In this document: positions 15,600 to 59,935 of the stretch, one piece after another
How the letters are laid out: each line of letters starts with the position of its first letter
How positions within the stretch are numbered: the first letter of the stretch is position 1
IMG/VR virus record: IMGVR_UViG_3300013713_000001
Span: 128,001-192,000 of that record
Length of the DNA: 64,000 nucleotides
Origin: a virus
Lineage: Duplodnaviria > Caudoviricetes
Reading direction: 5' to 3' (one strand)
Notes under the pieces: model-generated
Databases searched by the model: none
Told to the model about the DNA's origin: nothing
Seen by the model: the letters and a program-made list of their open reading frames with translations, nothing else
Translations under genes and position numbers: made by a program

Positions 15600-16904
15600 T
15601 TATTCAGCATTGACCTGGATCGAATTGTCGCAGATCTGGATCAAACCGTTGATGATAAGGGTCAGGTAGTTGGCAACCGTTACCCGGATGGAGAGCAGTT
15701 CCATCTGGTTATGGCGGACCAGGGCACTGAACCACTTGGCGATGTAGAGACGGGTGGTCTCGTCGATGTCGGCGTCAACGATACCTTTGATGATGTCGTT
15801 GTAGTCGGCGTCTGCCAACTTGAACTTCTCGCCTTTCTCGAACATGCTCGTCCAGTCTTTCAGCAGACCGCGAAGCGCCTTGACGATCGCTTTGATCTCA
15901 CGGCTGGAGAGCGCCTTGATTTCGGTACCCACCTGATCAACCACCACCGGAGCACTGTTCTCGAACGCAGTGCGGTCGTTCTTGACGTGGAGGTCGACGT
16001 ACTCAGCGAGCATGTCGAGGGTCTCACAGGTCTTTGGTGGGTTCTTCAAACGGGTGTCGAAGAAGTACGCACCGCCCATGAGCTCAACCGACTGCTTCGC
16101 CGAAACCAGTACACTTTCGTGCGCTTTGTTCGGGTAGCTGCACTCCTTGAAAGGAATGTTCGGAATGCTCATCGGCATCATCCGCAGACGCTCCATGGCA
16201 CCTTCCTGGCTCAACGACGTGAAGCCACCGAAGTAGCTCATCAACGCCTGCAGGGTCTGCTTGTTGTTCAGGTAGTAGCCGCCGCTGAGCGCCGAGATCG
16301 TCCCGCTGAGCTTGTTCAGGTTACCCGTCCAGTCAGCGTTTACCTTGCCGTTCACCTTGAACAGGTTGAACAGACGATGCTCGAGAATGAACGAGTTCGT
16401 GCTCATGAAGTCCGGGTAGCTGGTAACCTTTTGCTCCAGCAGATCCAGGGCCTTGTTCAGGTCGTCTTCGGATTGGGTAAAGATCACCCAGGCATCACGG
16501 AAGGAACTGCTGATTTGAACGGCCACATCACGCGACGCCTTGAAGAAGTCGGTGAGGAAGTTCTCGCAACCGGCGTAACGGGTGAGCAGGAAGTTCTTTG
16601 GTAGCAGGGTGTGACCGAGTGCTTCAGCGCCTTGTACTTCAGCAAAGCCAGTTTCCAGCGGAATCGTGACACCGGCACGGTTCAGGCGGTCATCGACCAT
16701 TTCCACGAGTGCTGGGGTGACCTCGTACGGCTCGACGCTTTCCAGAAGCTTCTGGGCTTCGAGGACGCGGTCAGCCGAACTGTCGAGTGCGGTCTGGACT
16801 TCGTTCAGGTGAATGGAGCTGCGCAGTGCATCGAAAAGTTCTACCGACTTAGCGGTATTGATCGCTGCCATTTGAGCAGCCAGCGAATCGTTGGAATTAT
16901 CCAT
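15600..16904 (-). CDS. Inner-head protein (phiKZ gp92-like)
   Basis: QGAE and AGCE sites and ELMGG motif; start placed at ATG 16904 (MDNSND), overlapping the upstream stop; the ORF track gives 16958. Confidence 0.6.
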   Translation of the reverse strand: MDNSNDSLAAQMAAINTAKSVELFDALRSSIHLNEVQTALDSSADRVLEAQKLLESVEPYEVTPALVEMVDDRLNRAGVTIPLETGFAEVQGAEALGHTLLPKNFLLTRYAGCENFLTDFFKASRDVAVQISSSFRDAWVIFTQSEDDLNKALDLLEQKVTSYPDFMSTNSFILEHRLFNLFKVNGKVNADWTGNLNKLSGTISALSGGYYLNNKQTLQALMSYFGGFTSLSQEGAMERLRMMPMSIPNIPFKECSYPNKAHESVLVSAKQSVELMGGAYFFDTRLKNPPKTCETLDMLAEYVDLHVKNDRTAFENSAPVVVDQVGTEIKALSSREIKAIVKALRGLLKDWTSMFEKGEKFKLADADYNDIIKGIVDADIDETTRLYIAKWFSALVRHNQMELLSIRVTVANYLTLIINGLIQICDNSIQVNAE

Positions 16905-17409
16905 AGTAGCTACCACCACCGAAGAGTTGAAGGAAACGAATAACTTGAGCCGGACCAATACCCGCCATCAGGTTGAAGAGGTCCATGTCATGAACCACAT
17001 AACCGTCTTCCAGCAAGGACAGGTTACCTGACGTGCGCTTCTGAGGAGAGTACGTAGCTGCTCGGTTCTTGACCGCTGCCTTAGCCTTGTTCTCTTCGAA
17101 GTTGATGCAGGTAACCAGGGGAACCGCACTGATCTTGCCGTTAAGGAAATGAACCACGTCTTTGACAAGCGTCGACAGGGGACCAGAACCACCGTAGTAG
17201 TTGGCCTCCATGAACTGACGGAAACTCCCACCCATCAGTCGCTTGGCTTCGCGCATGGTTTCGATGGAGAGATCCCCTTCGATTACCAGCGCAAAGTCCA
17301 AGACCCCATCACGGCGCATGAGGGCAAAGTTCTTGAAAATGTTGTCCAGGTCGGTGTCGCTCAACTGGTCACTTACAAAGCCGTTACCAAACTGACGATA
17401 ATTAGCCAT
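16897..17409 (-). CDS. Hypothetical virion-associated protein
   Basis: 170 aa, coupled to both neighbours. Confidence 0.65.
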   Translation of the reverse strand: MANYRQFGNGFVSDQLSDTDLDNIFKNFALMRRDGVLDFALVIEGDLSIETMREAKRLMGGSFRQFMEANYYGGSGPLSTLVKDVVHFLNGKISAVPLVTCINFEENKAKAAVKNRAATYSPQKRTSGNLSLLEDGYVVHDMDLFNLMAGIGPAQVIRFLQLFGGGSYYG

Positions 17410-32887: not shown

Positions 32888-34530
32888 AAAAAAGTCATGA
32901 ACATGTCGATCGGGGTGTACCCCAGGTTGCGAGCATGGCCATTGACCTCATCCGCGCCCTTCTTGCATTTCGGGCAAGGGGTATTGCGCAGACCGATGAA
33001 GGTACGCGTCATGTACGGTCCAGCGGTGTACACGAAGCGGGTCAGCTGGTTGTCCAGGTAGCTGTCCTTCAGCGCGCCGCGCAGGCCCTTGTTGAACTCG
33101 AGCTGGTCTGATTCACGGCGCTTGATCACAACCGGCGGTTCATCGCTCCCTGGCTGCGGCATCAGCGAGTACTCGGTGACCCAGTGCAGGAATTCGCAAC
33201 CACCGACACCCTTGAGAATCACAGCGATCTGGGCCTCGAGGGCTTCCTGGTCGGTGATGTTGTTTCGGGCGTTGGCGATCTGAGGATCCACCTGGGTGAC
33301 CATGTAGTCCAGCGCAGCAAACGCTTCCGCCAACGAGGTGTTGCCAACGGTCAGACGGACCGACTGGTTGGCATTGTAGATGTAGTTCTCTTCCACCCCG
33401 TACTTGGACTTCTCGATGAACTCGAGTACCTGCGCCATGCTGTAGCGTGCAGTACCGTTAAAGATGTTGCCAAGGATGGCCATCTCTTCATCGGTGTGGG
33501 CACTTGGGCGATGGCGGACGAGCAGCGCCGGGTTGATCTTCTCGTAGGAGCTCCAGTCACAGGACGGCGAGAAGCAACGCAGGTCCATGTTGGCTTCGTC
33601 GTCTTCGAACGAGGCCAGCAGTGCAGCCAGGATAACTTCCATGTCCCGGAAGCGGATAACCTGAGCCAGGTCGCGGAAGTCCGCGATGCCATCGATGCTG
33701 CAGTTGGTGATGTACGGAACCATCCAGTTCCACACCGCGCGGTAACCTGCAATCGTGGACAGGACCAGCGAGTTGCCACCGACGGTACGAACGTAACCAC
33801 GAATGGTCGCGTTGATCTCGTTGATGAGCATTGCAGCGTCAGTCTTGTGACCCCGGGCCAGCTGGAACTTGCAGAAGCTGTTGCGCAGGTTGATCGCGTA
33901 CAGGTACGGACTGGAGTTACCCCGCGAAGCAGCGCGTTCCATTTGCTCCGATAGGCTGTTCGGGCGAGCGGTGGCGCTCGGGATGAGTCCGGTGATGTCA
34001 GGCATGACAATAGAGTCAGAGGCCTTGTACACGTTACGGGCTTCTTCCCGCATCATCCTTGTCTTAACCATGATGGGGTCAGACGTGTTCTGGAGGAAGC
34101 GGTACATGTCCGCGGCTTTGATCTCCATGTCGTCGTACGAGACACCAGGGAACTTCTGGTCGCAGTACTGGTGCCATTCGGCCAGGGTCGCATTGACCAT
34201 GCTCTTGTGGATCTGACCTTTACGGGCGACTTCACGGATGCTGCTGAGCGACACCCAGATCGACACCAGCTCCTGGACTGCATCGTAGTCCGCTTTGCTG
34301 TTCCCGAGGTAGATCGGGGTAAACCCTTGACGCCGGCTCTCGTCGGTGTCTTCTGCCTGGCCTTTCGATTCAGGCAGGGAATCTACCTGTTTCTTCAACG
34401 GTGTGTTTTCTGGTGTGTGGGTGTCGGTGTACCCGAACGGCTTTGGTGGCTGTGGAATCGCCTCGCTCACCGCGTTGGCCAGAGGAGAATGTTCTGCTGG
34501 ATTGTTTACGGTTGGATCATCAGACATCAT
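32815..34530 (-). CDS. Conserved CxxC protein, candidate tail / baseplate assembly chaperone (phiKZ gp77-like)
   Basis: 571 aa with CFSPSC and CPKC knuckles; FF codons near the C-terminus sit on a slippery T7 run. Confidence 0.55.
   Translation of the reverse strand: MMSDDPTVNNPAEHSPLANAVSEAIPQPPKPFGYTDTHTPENTPLKKQVDSLPESKGQAEDTDESRRQGFTPIYLGNSKADYDAVQELVSIWVSLSSIREVARKGQIHKSMVNATLAEWHQYCDQKFPGVSYDDMEIKAADMYRFLQNTSDPIMVKTRMMREEARNVYKASDSIVMPDITGLIPSATARPNSLSEQMERAASRGNSSPYLYAINLRNSFCKFQLARGHKTDAAMLINEINATIRGYVRTVGGNSLVLSTIAGYRAVWNWMVPYITNCSIDGIADFRDLAQVIRFRDMEVILAALLASFEDDEANMDLRCFSPSCDWSSYEKINPALLVRHRPSAHTDEEMAILGNIFNGTARYSMAQVLEFIEKSKYGVEENYIYNANQSVRLTVGNTSLAEAFAALDYMVTQVDPQIANARNNITDQEALEAQIAVILKGVGGCEFLHWVTEYSLMPQPGSDEPPVVIKRRESDQLEFNKGLRGALKDSYLDNQLTRFVYTAGPYMTRTFIGLRNTPCPKCKKGADEVNGHARNLGYTPIDMFMTFFTHTQFMLVRMAETKQRVELEARS
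32887..32893 (-). promoter_or_regulatory. Candidate programmed -1 ribosomal frameshift site (T TTT TTT)
   Basis: X XXY YYZ heptamer in the correct phase (ACT TTT TTT ACC); downstream stem-loops at 32846-32868 and 32820-32843. Confidence 0.65.
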
Positions 34531-46475: not shown

Positions 46476-46805
46476 ATGCCCATTGCCAACAATGACTTTA
46501 GCAACGGTAAGGACGTCTTCTATACCGAACGATACAAAACACTGGTTCGTTCGGAGCTGGAGTTGATTCGCAAGGAGGCTTCGTATTTTCCCAACGTGAT
46601 TCCCGCTGTACAGCAAGCGTACAAGAATGACTTCTATCGCTTGTTGCGTTCGTTGGGGGTTCCTTCCTATCTGTGGTGGACAACCGCCTACATCAATGGA
46701 ATTACTGATCCCTTTGAAGACATCAGTGGCTTGACCCTGATCTACCAGGTAAGCGAAGATGCATTAAACGCGCGCATTGCACGTAATAATACATCCAGAG
46801 CATAA
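46476..46805 (+). CDS. Small protein, possible LysM / T4 gp53-like baseplate component
   Basis: 109 aa; YLWWTTAYINGITDPF resembles the gp53/LysM W-x5-N-x-I-x-DP pattern. Confidence 0.5.
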   Translation: MPIANNDFSNGKDVFYTERYKTLVRSELELIRKEASYFPNVIPAVQQAYKNDFYRLLRSLGVPSYLWWTTAYINGITDPFEDISGLTLIYQVSEDALNARIARNNTSRA

Positions 46806-46873: not shown

Positions 46874-48394
46874 TTAACCCCAGGAAGGGCTGTTACCAAA
46901 ACCGCTGTTGCCACCGTTGTCCAAGTTCGTCACGCTTGGGGTCCCGGTTGGCATGACCGGAGTTGGCATCATCTGCTGGAGCTGGGACGGATGGATGATC
47001 TGGCCGTTAGGCAGCTGGATCAGTCCGTTAGGCAGCTGGATCGGCTGACCGCCCATGCCCATCATCCCGTTCATGCCACCCATGCCGGCCATGTTCCCCA
47101 TGCCGCCAAAGCCCATGTTCATGCCACCGTACATGGCTGCACCGGCGTTCGGGTTAGGGGTTTGACGTTCGAGGAACGAACCCTGGCGAGTACAGATGTA
47201 CATGACCGGCAGGTTCGTGAGGGTATCGATCCCGTAGTGAGTGACGCGGCCCTGGTGGAAGTTGCACTCGTAACGGGTCAGGCGGTCCGTATGGAGTACT
47301 TGTGGTGGTGGGGTGATAACAAAGCCGGTGTTCGGATCGATGTTCTGACCCGACGGCTGAGTCGACGACCCCGGTGCGGCGTGCGACGGCGCCTGATGGA
47401 CGTTGCTGCTCACCGACATCAACCCAGCGAAGTCCTGACGACCAGCCGCCTGGTGGATCGTTTCGTCGTGGGTGTTGTGGGTGTTGTAGTCCATCTTTGG
47501 AACCTGCTTGTACCACTCGGGCAGGTTTTCCAGATCTTCGGTCCAGTTCAGGTTGACCGGGTAGATGCCCGCTTTCGCGAACTCGCTCCGGAAGGTGCTC
47601 TGGATCTTGTTGATCTGCTCGGCCACGTCGGCGTAGCAGTTGAGGTACGAGATCAGACGTGCAGCGATCGGACTGTTCGCTTCATGCACATGGTCGTCAG
47701 GTGACAGCACGGCTGGGACGATGTACTGGAACAGGTGGATAGCCAACTTGACCGCGGCGCGGGAGACGCTGTGGTTGTTGATCTCGATCTGCTGGTTGTC
47801 GGTCTTGCCTTCGGTACGGGCGATACGGCGAACCAGTTCGTTATAGAACGGGAACTCCGGCTTCGTCGTGTAGTAGACCTTGTCGCCCGAGGTCTTCGAC
47901 AGCTTGCCGCTGGACTTGTTCGTCTTGAAGTGCACGAAGCGGTTGTCCAGGCCGTTCTCTTCGACTTCCACATGCAGCCGACCGAAGAGGTCTTGGACTT
48001 CGCGAATGACCGGACCCTTGGCGCCCTTGAGGGGTTCCAGTAGATCCAGAACGCGCTGGCTCCAGGAGTTCTTTGGCTTGTTGCCGGCGACTGGAAAGAG
48101 GACCGGTGGGATCGAACGGAAGGCGTTCAGCAGGCGCAGGGAGGTTACCTTGCGGACCACTTTGAACACTTCGGTTTCTTTCGAGGTGATGTCTTCGCAC
48201 GCAGGGTGGAAGAAGACCTTGCCGACTGCCACTTCGTCGAGCACGTCAGTCGTTGGCAGGTAGAGGTTCATCCCGTCGATGGTGATCGGGTATTCTTTCC
48301 CGTCGAGGTCCAGCAGGATCTTGCCGTCCGTCTTGACGACCGTGTTCCAGGACATGAGCATGTCCTTGTACAGCTTGTTCAGTTCATTCATCAC
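46874..48394 (-). CDS. Conserved nucleus-block protein (phiKZ gp70-like) with low-complexity C-terminus
   Basis: 506 aa, FFHPACED motif, directly downstream of the PicA-like gene; G/M/N/Q/P-rich tail. Confidence 0.65.
   Translation of the reverse strand: MMNELNKLYKDMLMSWNTVVKTDGKILLDLDGKEYPITIDGMNLYLPTTDVLDEVAVGKVFFHPACEDITSKETEVFKVVRKVTSLRLLNAFRSIPPVLFPVAGNKPKNSWSQRVLDLLEPLKGAKGPVIREVQDLFGRLHVEVEENGLDNRFVHFKTNKSSGKLSKTSGDKVYYTTKPEFPFYNELVRRIARTEGKTDNQQIEINNHSVSRAAVKLAIHLFQYIVPAVLSPDDHVHEANSPIAARLISYLNCYADVAEQINKIQSTFRSEFAKAGIYPVNLNWTEDLENLPEWYKQVPKMDYNTHNTHDETIHQAAGRQDFAGLMSVSSNVHQAPSHAAPGSSTQPSGQNIDPNTGFVITPPPQVLHTDRLTRYECNFHQGRVTHYGIDTLTNLPVMYICTRQGSFLERQTPNPNAGAAMYGGMNMGFGGMGNMAGMGGMNGMMGMGGQPIQLPNGLIQLPNGQIIHPSQLQQMMPTPVMPTGTPSVTNLDNGGNSGFGNSPSWG
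47004..47041. repeat. Direct repeat (17 bp x2, 21-bp period) encoding IQLPNG twice
   Basis: CCGTTAGGCAGCTGGAT at 47004-47020 and 47025-47041. Confidence 0.85.
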
Positions 48395-48402
48395 TGATCA
48401 CC

Positions 48403-49851
48403 TTAGAAGTATTCTTTGATGTTACTCAGGTAGTTCTTCGATTCCGACAGACCGATTTCAGTCCCGGAGATCAGAGAACTCGAGTGGTTGATGTAGTAGG
48501 TGGCGTTGCTAAAGGTTTTGCTGTTGTTGTAATCCGTGCCGAACGAGATCGTGACACGGGTTTCACCAAACATGTGGCATTCCATATGCAGGTTGATAAG
48601 GGTACGCAGGTGAGCGTAGGGACCGGTGTACTTGGCGAAGAATGCATCGGTGAACTGGCGGTTAAAGGTTTCTACCCGCCCGTGCAGGTTGAGGTCGTTG
48701 TCCAGCACCGACATGGACTGTGCCGGAGAGAACGCTACACCACCACCGCCTTCATCGCCGCTGACGCCGTCGAAGTCAGTAGGGTTGTTGGTGCAGCTGA
48801 AGTTGTACGACATCAAGCCGCAGGAGAGCAGCAGGTGGACACACATCATCGCTGCTTCGGAGGCAATGATCTCGTGCTGGTTAACACGGCCATAGTCCTG
48901 GGTCAGCAGCTGGGTATCGTCAGCCGCAAACTTGCTGACATCCATGTTGTCCAGGTTCAGGACGTCGATGAAGTTTGGCCAGACTTCCACCATCTCGTCA
49001 ACCGACCACCCACGGAATGTGCCAAGGCTATGAACGCTCAGTACACTCATCATTGTCTGCATGAAGGGGTTGTCGTGAGGAGAGATCTCGTTAAGGGTGG
49101 CGGTGGTCATGTACTCACCAATCGCCCACGCCAGATTGCCATCGTTCCCAGAGGCATGATCAGCGGTTGTTACAGCCAACTTCAGCAGCTCTTTCGAGTA
49201 GTGCGTTGGGTTCAGGTTCTGGGTCTTCGACATGAGCAACTGATTGGTCAAGTCGGAGTTCGCCACCCCACAATAGTTTTGTGAAGTCCCGTCACCGTCA
49301 GTTACCGCGTAACCCAGTGCAGCACTCGCTACGTCATAAGGACGCACTGCGGCCATGTCCTTCTTACCGAAGGGGTCACCCAGGAGGAACTGATGGGTAC
49401 TGTCAACGACTTGCTTGGTCGTTGGGTAACCCTGGCCGTCATGCGACTGCGTCGTGAGCGTGCTCCAGCAGCGTACCGGTTGCAATCGCGTGGCACCGTC
49501 AAGGCCGTTCTCAGCGTTGCTATTACCGCCCACGAGGAAGCACACCACCGACATGTCTGAGCTCTCAGTGGCGTTCGAGTGGACCTGGAACTTCAGCAGG
49601 CAGATCCCTCGGCGCATGTTCATCCCTTCTTCGACGGAGACGAACCCTTGAGGCTGAGCGCAGAGCTGACCGGAACCCATGGCAACGTCGTGCAGGGTCT
49701 TCGGAAGGATCCCGCCGGATTCTTGCTCATGACGGAGTCGGTCGATCTCCAGGTTGTCCAGGCTCAGTGTGGTGTGGCGGTGAACGTGGTGGTGCTGACT
49801 CGTGCCAATACCAAAGAAAGCCTGTTGCAGTACAGTTGTGATCTCAGCCAT
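48403..49851 (-). CDS. picA: Phage-nucleus protein import factor PicA/Imp1-like (phiKZ gp69-like)
   Basis: 482 aa, between the gp68-like and gp70-like genes; VRPYDV and HMFGETRVTISF motifs; the call rests mainly on synteny and size. Confidence 0.6.
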   Translation of the reverse strand: MAEITTVLQQAFFGIGTSQHHHVHRHTTLSLDNLEIDRLRHEQESGGILPKTLHDVAMGSGQLCAQPQGFVSVEEGMNMRRGICLLKFQVHSNATESSDMSVVCFLVGGNSNAENGLDGATRLQPVRCWSTLTTQSHDGQGYPTTKQVVDSTHQFLLGDPFGKKDMAAVRPYDVASAALGYAVTDGDGTSQNYCGVANSDLTNQLLMSKTQNLNPTHYSKELLKLAVTTADHASGNDGNLAWAIGEYMTTATLNEISPHDNPFMQTMMSVLSVHSLGTFRGWSVDEMVEVWPNFIDVLNLDNMDVSKFAADDTQLLTQDYGRVNQHEIIASEAAMMCVHLLLSCGLMSYNFSCTNNPTDFDGVSGDEGGGGVAFSPAQSMSVLDNDLNLHGRVETFNRQFTDAFFAKYTGPYAHLRTLINLHMECHMFGETRVTISFGTDYNNSKTFSNATYYINHSSSLISGTEIGLSESKNYLSNIKEYF

Positions 49852-57934: not shown

Positions 57935-59935
57935 TTAGCCCCAGATGCCGCCGTTGCCGAAGCCACCCAGCAGGTTCATGCCATTGGAGGTGCCCACCGA
58001 GGTAACGGTTTGCAGACCAGCCATCGGCATGAATGCCATGTTGTTCGGACGCATCGACGCGTAGGTGTTGGCCACGGTCAGAGTACCCATCTCCGACAGT
58101 GCCTTGCCGATGACGGCCATCAGGTGCGGATCCCAGACGCAGGAGAAGCCGAAGTTGTTGACGTGCAGATGACCATCGAACAGACTGGTGCTCATCTCGA
58201 TCTTCAGCTTCTGGCAGCGCGAACGCACTTCCTCGTTGGTGGTGCCGTAGAGGATGCTCAGGTAGTTCATGGACTGCTGGAGACCAGCCTTGCCCTTGTG
58301 CGTACCCAGGTACATCTCGTCGACTTCCAGGGTGTTCAGCTCGCGACCTTGTGGGTTCTTCGCGAGACCGTTCACCGCGATCATCTTCGTGCGGTGCAGC
58401 GCGACGTCGCCTGGTTTCCAGCCCTTGCCGCTGGCCACGTTCTCGGCAACGATCTCCGAGAAACGGCCGTTGGACATGGAGTCCATTACCGCGATCATGG
58501 CTTGTACCGCCGACTGACGGTTGGCCAGAACAGGATCCGACAGAACTTCCAGGTGTTTGTTCACCGGGGAGTCGAGGCCGCCGAGGATCACGTTGCTGCG
58601 GAACAGAGCATTCGGCGAGATGTTCTGGTGCATCCACTTGTTGACGGCTTCGGTGTCCAGGATGGTCTTGTCGTCCATCTGAGGACGGGCACCGGAGTAG
58701 ACCTGGGCGATCAGCTGCTCGATGCGAGGTTCGAACGCGCTCAGGTTACCACGCGAACCGACGTTGGCACGACGCAGGGGTTCTGCGAAGATGTAGTCGG
58801 TGTTGGTGCACATCAGAGCGAACAGCGAGTAGTAGTACGGGTGCAGGCCGTTGTTGAAGTTCATCATCTCTTCGGCGATTGCCGAGTCGAGGGTGATGAC
58901 CGGATGCAGCGGACGGTAGCCGTTCGCGTACATGCCGCCGTTGATACCCAGGAAGGCCTGGATGGCATCGGCTTGACCGCCGGCTTGCGAGATGGCTGCG
59001 ATGTTCTGCATGTGCATCTGGTAGCTGATGGCCGACAGTTGCACGGTCGCCAGCGCCCGCACGATCCCTTTCGAGTTCGGGTTGTTGTTGTTGCCGTTGT
59101 TGTTGTTCGGGTTGTTGGTGGTCGAGATCACCAGTTCCATGTTCGACGCCATGAGGGTGCCGGCCTTGGAGACCTTGTTCTCGACAGCGGTAACCCGAGC
59201 TTCGGCCCAGCCGTCTTTGCCGTACGGCGCGCTTGGATCCTTGAACGCGGAAGGCAGACGAGCTTTGCGCTTCGGCATCTCGGAGCAGATCTTGACGAAC
59301 ACCGCAGTTTCCCACTGCCCTTTCAGGTAGTTGGCGATGCGCTGCGGACGCTCTTTCAGATCGCCGGCCTGGGAGTGTTGCAGCATTTCCAGGTCTTCGG
59401 TCATCAGGTTGATGATTTCCGGCTCGCCCTTCATGCCGTTCTGCTCGAGCAGCTGCTTGAAGTGCTTGCGCAGGTTGTCGACCAGCTCGTTGGTGAAGTA
59501 GTTGGTCGGGGTCAGCAGGACCGAGGTCTTGTGCGGCATGCCCATCGGTTGCAGGACCTGGACGGTCTCGGTGGCGATGGCGTTGTCCTTGTTCGAGAAC
59601 AGGACGAGCATGACCCAGACGCTGTCACCGACGAAACGGTGCAGAACCAGGCCGGGCAGGGTGGAGCTGATGACCGGCGAAACTTTGTCGACGGTTGGGA
59701 TGATCGCGCGCTGGGCCGGCTGGATGGTCGACTCGCCCATGGCGGTATAGCCCTTCTTGAGCAGCTCCAGGACTTCGTCGACTTCGGGGAGCTGACGGTT
59801 GTCGGAGGACATCGAAGGGGTGTGGAAGAGGTCGTTGAGCAGGTTCAGTTCCAGAGCGTGCCCATCGTTGTTGTCCCAACCACCAGCGTTGTTGCCTTTG
59901 CGGTTACTTTGAACGGCCATAATGTAGAACTCCAT
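57935..59935 (-). CDS. chmA: Chimallin, phage nuclear shell protein (phiKZ gp54-like)
   Basis: About 660 aa, extreme codon bias, own early promoter, directly upstream of nvRNAP beta'-N and near the DNA polymerase (conserved Chimalliviridae order), Gly-rich flexible C-terminus; probable start ATG 59920 (GGAG RBS). Confidence 0.8.
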   Translation of the reverse strand: MEFYIMAVQSNRKGNNAGGWDNNDGHALELNLLNDLFHTPSMSSDNRQLPEVDEVLELLKKGYTAMGESTIQPAQRAIIPTVDKVSPVISSTLPGLVLHRFVGDSVWVMLVLFSNKDNAIATETVQVLQPMGMPHKTSVLLTPTNYFTNELVDNLRKHFKQLLEQNGMKGEPEIINLMTEDLEMLQHSQAGDLKERPQRIANYLKGQWETAVFVKICSEMPKRKARLPSAFKDPSAPYGKDGWAEARVTAVENKVSKAGTLMASNMELVISTTNNPNNNNGNNNNPNSKGIVRALATVQLSAISYQMHMQNIAAISQAGGQADAIQAFLGINGGMYANGYRPLHPVITLDSAIAEEMMNFNNGLHPYYYSLFALMCTNTDYIFAEPLRRANVGSRGNLSAFEPRIEQLIAQVYSGARPQMDDKTILDTEAVNKWMHQNISPNALFRSNVILGGLDSPVNKHLEVLSDPVLANRQSAVQAMIAVMDSMSNGRFSEIVAENVASGKGWKPGDVALHRTKMIAVNGLAKNPQGRELNTLEVDEMYLGTHKGKAGLQQSMNYLSILYGTTNEEVRSRCQKLKIEMSTSLFDGHLHVNNFGFSCVWDPHLMAVIGKALSEMGTLTVANTYASMRPNNMAFMPMAGLQTVTSVGTSNGMNLLGGFGNGGIWG

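Follow-up and report, generated by a model that had tools for sequence, protein, structure and literature searches.

One gene in a stretch of 64,000 nucleotides (positions 128,001 to 192,000 of the IMG/VR virus record IMGVR_UViG_3300013713_000001; hereafter the window), whose product ends in a tail resembling that of chimallin itself, bears on the question of how the chimallin lattice of the phage nucleus holds the accessory proteins that serve import, mRNA export and capsid docking. The virus record behind the window, that of an uncultured, nucleus-forming giant phage, is 229 kb, and its nearest cultured relative is Pseudomonas phage EL, with only about 50% protein identity. The initial annotation had suggested that this gp70-like protein tethers to the nuclear shell by imitating the chimallin tail, or that both tails bind a common partner. 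A gp70 tail that copies the connectors of chimallin is a concrete and cheaply testable hypothesis for the core, shell-associated gp70/gp64 family.

The gp70-like gene within the chimallivirus gene block

The gp70-like gene (46874 to 48394, minus strand) is an ORF of 506 aa matching PHROG 3520, a family of unknown function, with an E value of 1e-91. It belongs to a minus-strand chimallivirus block with the order chimallin, RNAP-beta-like gene, several genes, PicA/Imp1-like gene, gp70-like gene and two nvRNAP subunit genes. The gene for the PicA/Imp1-like import factor (48403 to 49851, minus strand; PHROG 3141, E 7e-64) lies directly upstream of gp70, in agreement with the neighbourhood given by the initial annotation. 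Its product has 50% identity to EL gp34, and the annotation of ΦPA3 gp063 ties the PicA/Imp1 gene to ΦKZ gp069. The synteny is held in all relatives: the slot of gp70 between the PicA/Imp1 and nvRNAP beta genes is found in the window, and the order PicA-gp70-nvRNAP is also present in EL, Joad, FishSpeaker, ΦPA3, Miami, CF8, D6, Xoo-sp14, ΦKZ, RAY and SPN3US. A small convergent ORF of 109 aa on the plus strand (46476 to 46805; PHROG 3455, unknown function) separates gp70 from the nvRNAP beta gene, and an opposite-strand ORF in a comparable place was seen in most relatives examined.

When the window protein was used as the tblastn query, 155 phage records were matched, including EL (52% identity, E 1e-158), ΦPA3 gp064 (2e-7) and the ΦKZ-type proteins (6e-4). 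The ΦPA3 record equates gp064 with 201φ2-1 gp126, ΦKZ gp070 and EL gp035. With ΦPA3 gp64 as the query, the family was found in 263 phage records, and it is therefore a core gene of this virus family. Membership of the window protein is given by homology of the N-terminal domain of about 300 residues, and its distant homologs align over residues ~5-310 only. In ΦPA3, ChmA/RecA proximity labelling identified gp64, which localises to the nuclear shell and co-purifies with ChmB (Enustun et al. 2023, PMC10643120). Within the gp70/gp64 family, shell localisation has been shown for ΦPA3 gp64 only; ΦKZ gp70 is classed as a nuclear protein, not a shell protein, and is absent from the Imp1 pull-down. 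The gene encodes the EL-type representative of the gp70/ΦPA3-gp64 family; this shell protein is part of the chimallivirus core and has a folded N-terminal domain. The shell association of the family is already known and fits the family data, and the proposal of a new component of the phage nucleus has to be withdrawn, since the list of shell proteins already includes ΦPA3 gp64. As for the tail, no description of mimicry, or of a function of gp64/gp70, was found in the literature, including reviews of late 2025 and mid-2026 and the PicA and Imp papers; the gp64/gp70 protein itself is unmentioned in these reviews and in the PicA paper.

The window protein shares with ΦPA3 gp64, ΦKZ gp70 and 201φ2-1 gp126 the homologous N-terminal domain, the same gene position and a long disordered C-terminal region. 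However, its identity to the ΦKZ and ΦPA3 proteins is only ~21% over ~300 residues, and these proteins end in Leu-Leu or Leu-Ile and have tails unlike those of their own chimallins, whereas the window protein has a tail resembling the C-terminal docking segments (CTS1 and CTS2) of chimallin and an extra small beta domain. Another accessory shell-associated protein is ChmB (ΦPA3 gp2), a minor component within the ChmA lattice; it is comparable to gp64 in this respect but is unrelated to gp70 and has no reported tail mimicry.

Domain organisation of the gp70-like protein

In the AF2 model, the protein begins with an alpha/beta domain (residues 1-300; 47495 to 48394, minus strand; pLDDT mostly 80-97), which is the conserved core of the family. 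A disordered linker (residues 302-361) leads to a small four-stranded beta domain (residues 362-416; 47147 to 47311, minus strand; pLDDT 71-83), followed by a Gly/Met-rich disordered tract (residues 417-451; 47042 to 47146, minus strand; pLDDT <50) that varies in close relatives, and the protein closes with the disordered C-terminal tail (residues 471-506). In the spacer before the tail there is a tandem seven-residue repeat of Leu-Pro-Asn-Gly type (residues ~454-467; about 46994 to 47035, minus strand), where the pLDDT is near 60.

No match was obtained for the protein in Pfam, and a sequence search of PDB returned spurious weak matches only. Using the model, Foldseek found nothing in PDB at E≤0.001, and the wide structure search with VIA gave generic matches for the domains with a best Z of 5.7; for the small beta domain these were beta-meander or WD-blade-like folds with Z≤5.6. 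The fold matches in BFVD are uncharacterised jumbo-phage homologs only. Taken together, Pfam, PDB, Foldseek, VIA and BFVD detected no relatives of the folded domains outside jumbo phages. The label 'DNA ligase' carried by the homolog in PDCC-1 is unsupported by these domain searches. In the IMG/VR contig 3300015261_000001 (about 230.6 kb), a separate ORF of 222 aa matches the small beta domain alone (profile positions 342-416), and therefore a related phage has this domain in a second protein as well.

Likeness of the tail to the docking segments of chimallin

The chimallin (ChmA) gene of the window (57935 to 59935, minus strand) encodes 666 aa and matches PHROG 4795 'nuclear shell protein' with an E value of 2e-96. 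A single-sequence phmmer search of the window chimallin against PDB gave no match, and a profile of 21 chimallin sequences was needed, which matched PDB 8fne at 5e-156 and 8igg/7sqq at 1e-94. In the AF2 monomer, residues 47-623 form a confident core and residues 624-666 have pLDDT <50. In the chimallin of 201φ2-1, CTS1 comprises residues 590-611 and CTS2 the last ten residues; both dock onto neighbouring protomers, self-assembly needs both, and deletion of the CTS abolishes self-assembly in vitro (Laughlin et al. 2022). By profile alignment to residues 590-611 of 201φ2-1, the CTS1-equivalent segment of the window chimallin lies at residues ~632-651 (57983 to 58042, minus strand; pLDDT <50). 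The CTS2 equivalent, mapped by its terminal position, is residues 657-666 (57938 to 57967, minus strand), which are invariant in the clade of the window virus. The window chimallin is homologous to the solved chimallins of ΦPA3 and 201φ2-1, including the C-terminal domain, and has the flexible extension that bears CTS1 and CTS2.

The tail of gp70 resembles exactly these elements. Residues 481-489 (46928 to 46954, minus strand) align with chimallin residues 636-645 in the core of CTS1; a short Asn/Gly spacer follows, and the last ten residues (497-506; 46877 to 46906, minus strand), with Trp-Gly at the very end, align with residues 657-666, that is, with CTS2. The initial annotation had described both tails by one pattern of spaced motifs closing with GFGN-x3-WG and had stated that chimallin lattices assemble through docking C-terminal segments. 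Both statements hold, the second agreeing with the published CTS1 and CTS2 onto which the likeness maps: gp70 and chimallin are the sole ORFs fitting the full pattern among 5,472 ORFs of four chimallivirus genomes, and the end GFGN-x3-WG occurs in these two ORFs only, in the whole genome of the window virus and likewise in the four genomes. The 32-residue chimallin tail had been quoted correctly, and its range (57935-58030) is one codon short, which is trivial. Two more ORFs of the genome end in Trp-Gly, giving four in total; they encode 327 and 297 aa (stop-side positions 117294 and 199445 of the full genome, outside the window) and are otherwise unlike the chimallin tail.

The local BLOSUM62 score of the last 32 residues of gp70 against those of chimallin is 60. 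When both tails were shuffled with their composition kept, the score was 29.6±5.9 (p≈1.5e-4, z≈5), and shuffling of the gp70 tail alone gave p≈0.002. When the chimallin tail was compared with 829 ORF tails of the genome, gp70 scored 60, the next best 35 and the background 16.4±4.3; against 2,404 pooled ORF tails, the z value of the gp70-chimallin pair is 9.7. Gly/Asn composition as the sole cause, which the initial annotation had named as a possible undoing of its idea, is ruled out for the window pair by the shuffle controls, and the genome-wide ranking of tails agrees. A weak match to the chimallin tail (score 25-35, third or fourth in the genome) is shown by an ORF of 170 aa at 16897 to 17409 on the minus strand, which is Gly-rich and then ends in Tyr-Tyr-Gly.

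At the DNA level the two 3' ends are dissimilar. Among 14 identical aligned residues, the same codon is used in 4, two of which are Met and Trp, and the glycine codons differ systematically (GGT in the gene of one tail and GGC in that of the other). Since synonymous codons differ almost everywhere, the likeness is kept at the protein level, and this rules out recent DNA copying from one 3' end to the other as well as gene conversion.

Conservation in the clade of the window virus

Both tails are kept almost unchanged in four IMG/VR metagenomic contigs with 81-87% identity. The segment of gp70 resembling the CTS1 core (residues 481-489) is invariant across four clade members except for residue 485. 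Relative to the window, the gp70 tails of the relatives differ within 28 codons by 8-10 synonymous and 5-6 non-synonymous changes, the latter mostly located in the spacer between the two motifs, and likewise in the chimallin tail. This synonymous excess indicates purifying selection on the disordered tail. The tail pairs of all five genomes have z values of 8-10 and shuffle p values of 0.001-0.002. In the closest outgroup (52% chimallin identity), both gp70 and chimallin have an aromatic-Gly end and the other motif blocks are missing, so the full mimicry arose inside the window clade, on an older type of terminus. The concern raised initially, that the likeness might be absent in relatives, is therefore half justified: it is kept in the five-genome clade and missing from most other lineages. 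An order-specific likeness of the gp70 tail to the CTS1 core and CTS2 of its own chimallin, ending at the C-terminus, was found in the window clade only.

These data bear on the reading that the likeness arose by historical accident and has no part in docking. It would be either an old segmental copy or a convergence by drift of Gly/Asn/Ser-rich, low-complexity disordered tails, retained in a single clade for properties such as solubility or use as a linker, not for chimallin binding. The restriction to one clade fits such an origin, as do the many lineages with compositional similarity only (shuffle p>0.1) and the fast evolution of disordered tails; moreover, the likeness was found by eye on one genome, hence a selection effect. 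Nevertheless, the match depends on residue order (z≈5 relative to shuffled tails and z≈10 relative to the ORF tails of the genome), three separate motif blocks occur in the same order on both tails and end exactly at the C-terminus, purifying selection acts on the tail while synonymous sites are saturated, and the gp70 family is shell-associated. We consider an accident of this kind doubtful, and the same holds for retention of the tail for solubility or linker properties.

Tails of gp70 and chimallin in other chimalliviruses

Tail pairs of gp70 and chimallin from about 40 further lineages were scored with 2,404 real ORF tails and shuffled tails as references. Pseudomonas phage vB_PQ1 (PQ516283.1) was excluded from all tests; in this EL-like phage, the chimallin, gp70 and RNAP genes are split into short CDSs and there are many 'CRISPR' repeat_region features, so that it looks like a frameshift-ridden assembly. 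The pair of KpXa_1 gave z 7.3 with a shuffle p of 0.014, and a weak order-specific signal (p 0.01-0.04 at one tail length) was present in 26424_14, 11223_2, 28676_5, pTD1 and Xoo-sp14. The high z values of LucasX and Xoo-sp14 are accounted for by composition. In ΦKZ, ΦPA3, Viktualia, OBP, Moabite, Miami, USC-1 and RAY, tail scoring revealed no resemblance of the gp70 tail to the tail of the own chimallin, and in the Vibrio phages the likeness is nil or compositional only. Ranked against its own chimallin tail, the gp70 tail is 2nd among 757 ORF tails in Xoo-sp14, 61st in Moabite and 93rd in OBP.

The initial annotation had proposed to look for co-variation of the two C-termini across Chimalliviridae, which was not borne out. 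Unrestricted permutation of partners gave p values down to 5e-5, mostly because of the composition class that differs between groups. Within groups, the p values were 0.002-0.12 when the window clade was included and 0.015-0.35 when it was left out. In the EL-like group, similarity to the own partner exceeded that to other partners (p≈0.005-0.007); when EL-like gp70 tails were aligned with chimallin tails by hhalign after removal of the window clade, no alignment was obtained, and 24 of 200 column shuffles scored equally well. Fine-scale covariation of the two tails across the family is unsupported, being marginal within groups once the window clade is removed. The likeness is neither conserved nor co-varying with chimallin across the family, and only the terminal aromatic is broadly shared: at least one of the last two residues is aromatic in 25 of 31 gp70 lineages and likewise in 25 of 31 chimallins (81%) vs 16% of 1,400 background ORFs. 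In the gp70 proteins of ΦKZ type, the last two residues are aliphatic instead.

Within a lineage, the C-terminal tails of gp70 and chimallin are both disordered and share a compositional class, which is Gly/Asn/Ser-rich in most lineages and Arg/Gly/Asp-rich in Xoo-sp14, KpXa_1, LucasX and PCH45; in OBP-like phages both proteins end in Tyr. Such a pattern would be expected if the two tails served a common third partner or a local environment instead of each other's sites. Candidates are a factor recognising flexible tails that close with an aromatic, a function of both tails at the corner pores of the lattice, or a weak multivalent, condensate-like interaction at the shell surface. In favour of this explanation, the tail type tracks between gp70 and chimallin across deep lineages without identity of motifs, terminal aromatics are enriched in both families, and the PicA homolog of Xoo-sp14 bears the same Asp/Arg-rich type of tail. 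On the other side, no such partner is known, ΦKZ gp70 was not recovered with Imp1, and in the window clade the tail matches, motif by motif, segments that are known to bind chimallin itself. We therefore regard a common partner as unlikely, and each of the named candidates likewise.

Possible roles of the gp70 tail at the shell

The explanation we favour is that the gp70 tail of this clade uses the CTS acceptor sites of chimallin to attach gp70 to the shell; we consider it quite possible, though short of probable. The tail imitates, at the protein level, the CTS1 core and the terminal CTS2, by which chimallin protomers dock onto one another, and would fill the CTS1 and/or CTS2 acceptor sites of chimallin protomers. 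Occupied sites could tether gp70 to the shell beside the PicA import machinery. Free acceptor sites might exist at lattice edges, defects or growth sites, or where chimallin tails are displaced, and a local capping or loosening of the lattice could follow. That the tail binds chimallin, and that the lattice is affected in any way, is our inference, suggested by the data.

Docking at CTS sites is partly supported by the unique order-dependent match, its mapping onto CTS1 and CTS2, the disorder of both tails, the conservation in the clade and the shell-associated family. Like the CTS1 and CTS2 of chimallin (PDB 7sqq, 8igg and 8fne), the gp70 tail is disordered after a folded core, has the same order of motifs and ends in an aromatic segment. 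It differs in that it belongs to another protein, lacks the N-terminal half of CTS1, has a spacer of 8 residues vs 12 in chimallin, and has a putative docking role. With the shorter spacer, the tail may not reach two acceptor sites in the manner of chimallin. Against docking stand the confinement of the likeness essentially to the window clade, the marginal covariation without this clade, the empty hhalign result and the listing of ΦKZ gp70 as nuclear. Furthermore, in ΦPA3 the shell is reached by a gp64 whose tail is unlike that of ChmA, and shell association in this phage therefore does not require mimicry. A single run of complex prediction with the chimallin core (residues 40-621) and the gp70 tail (residues 465-506) gave a score of 0.01, with the partner disordered, and weighs neither for nor against docking. 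As a mechanism of attachment, tail mimicry appears to be undescribed and seems plausible, but it is not general at the level of sequence.

The same tail evidence would also fit a competitive regulator, which by filling CTS sites would prevent contacts between chimallin protomers and thereby restrict or remodel the growth of the lattice, or open gaps for import and export complexes. The loss of in vitro self-assembly upon CTS deletion and the adjacency of the gp70 and PicA genes are in line with such a function; however, most lineages do without the mimicry despite needing the same lattice dynamics, and we judge regulation of this kind very unlikely.

In a broader form of the docking proposal, imitation of the docking tails of chimallin would be a general means of inserting accessory proteins into the lattice of the phage nucleus, which we rate as fairly unlikely. 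The flexible tail of the gp70 family, whose end bears an aromatic or hydrophobic anchor (81% of lineages), would then, in the majority of chimalliviruses, bind ChmA at its CTS2 acceptor site, and the window clade would be the most legible form, to which a CTS1-like element has been added. If true, this would provide a first rule for the recruitment of minor components to the phage nucleus and a handle for the design of shell-targeting probes; if false, the family-wide tail type would still suggest that the C-termini of shell proteins are subject to a shared constraint.

Similar tails were also noticed beyond gp70 and chimallin. Asp/Arg-rich tails are found on chimallin, gp70 and the PicA homolog (ORF ending near 211058) of Xanthomonas phage Xoo-sp14, and those of gp70 and PicA rank 2nd and 4th, respectively, among the 757 ORF tails compared with that of chimallin. 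A tail class may thus be common to several shell proteins. In OBP, the chimallin tail is matched best, itself excepted, by that of an ORF of 717 aa starting near 34126, ~11 kb upstream of chimallin, which has a Gly/Tyr-rich tail ending in Ser-Ser-Tyr, and the gp70 tail of this phage is unremarkable.
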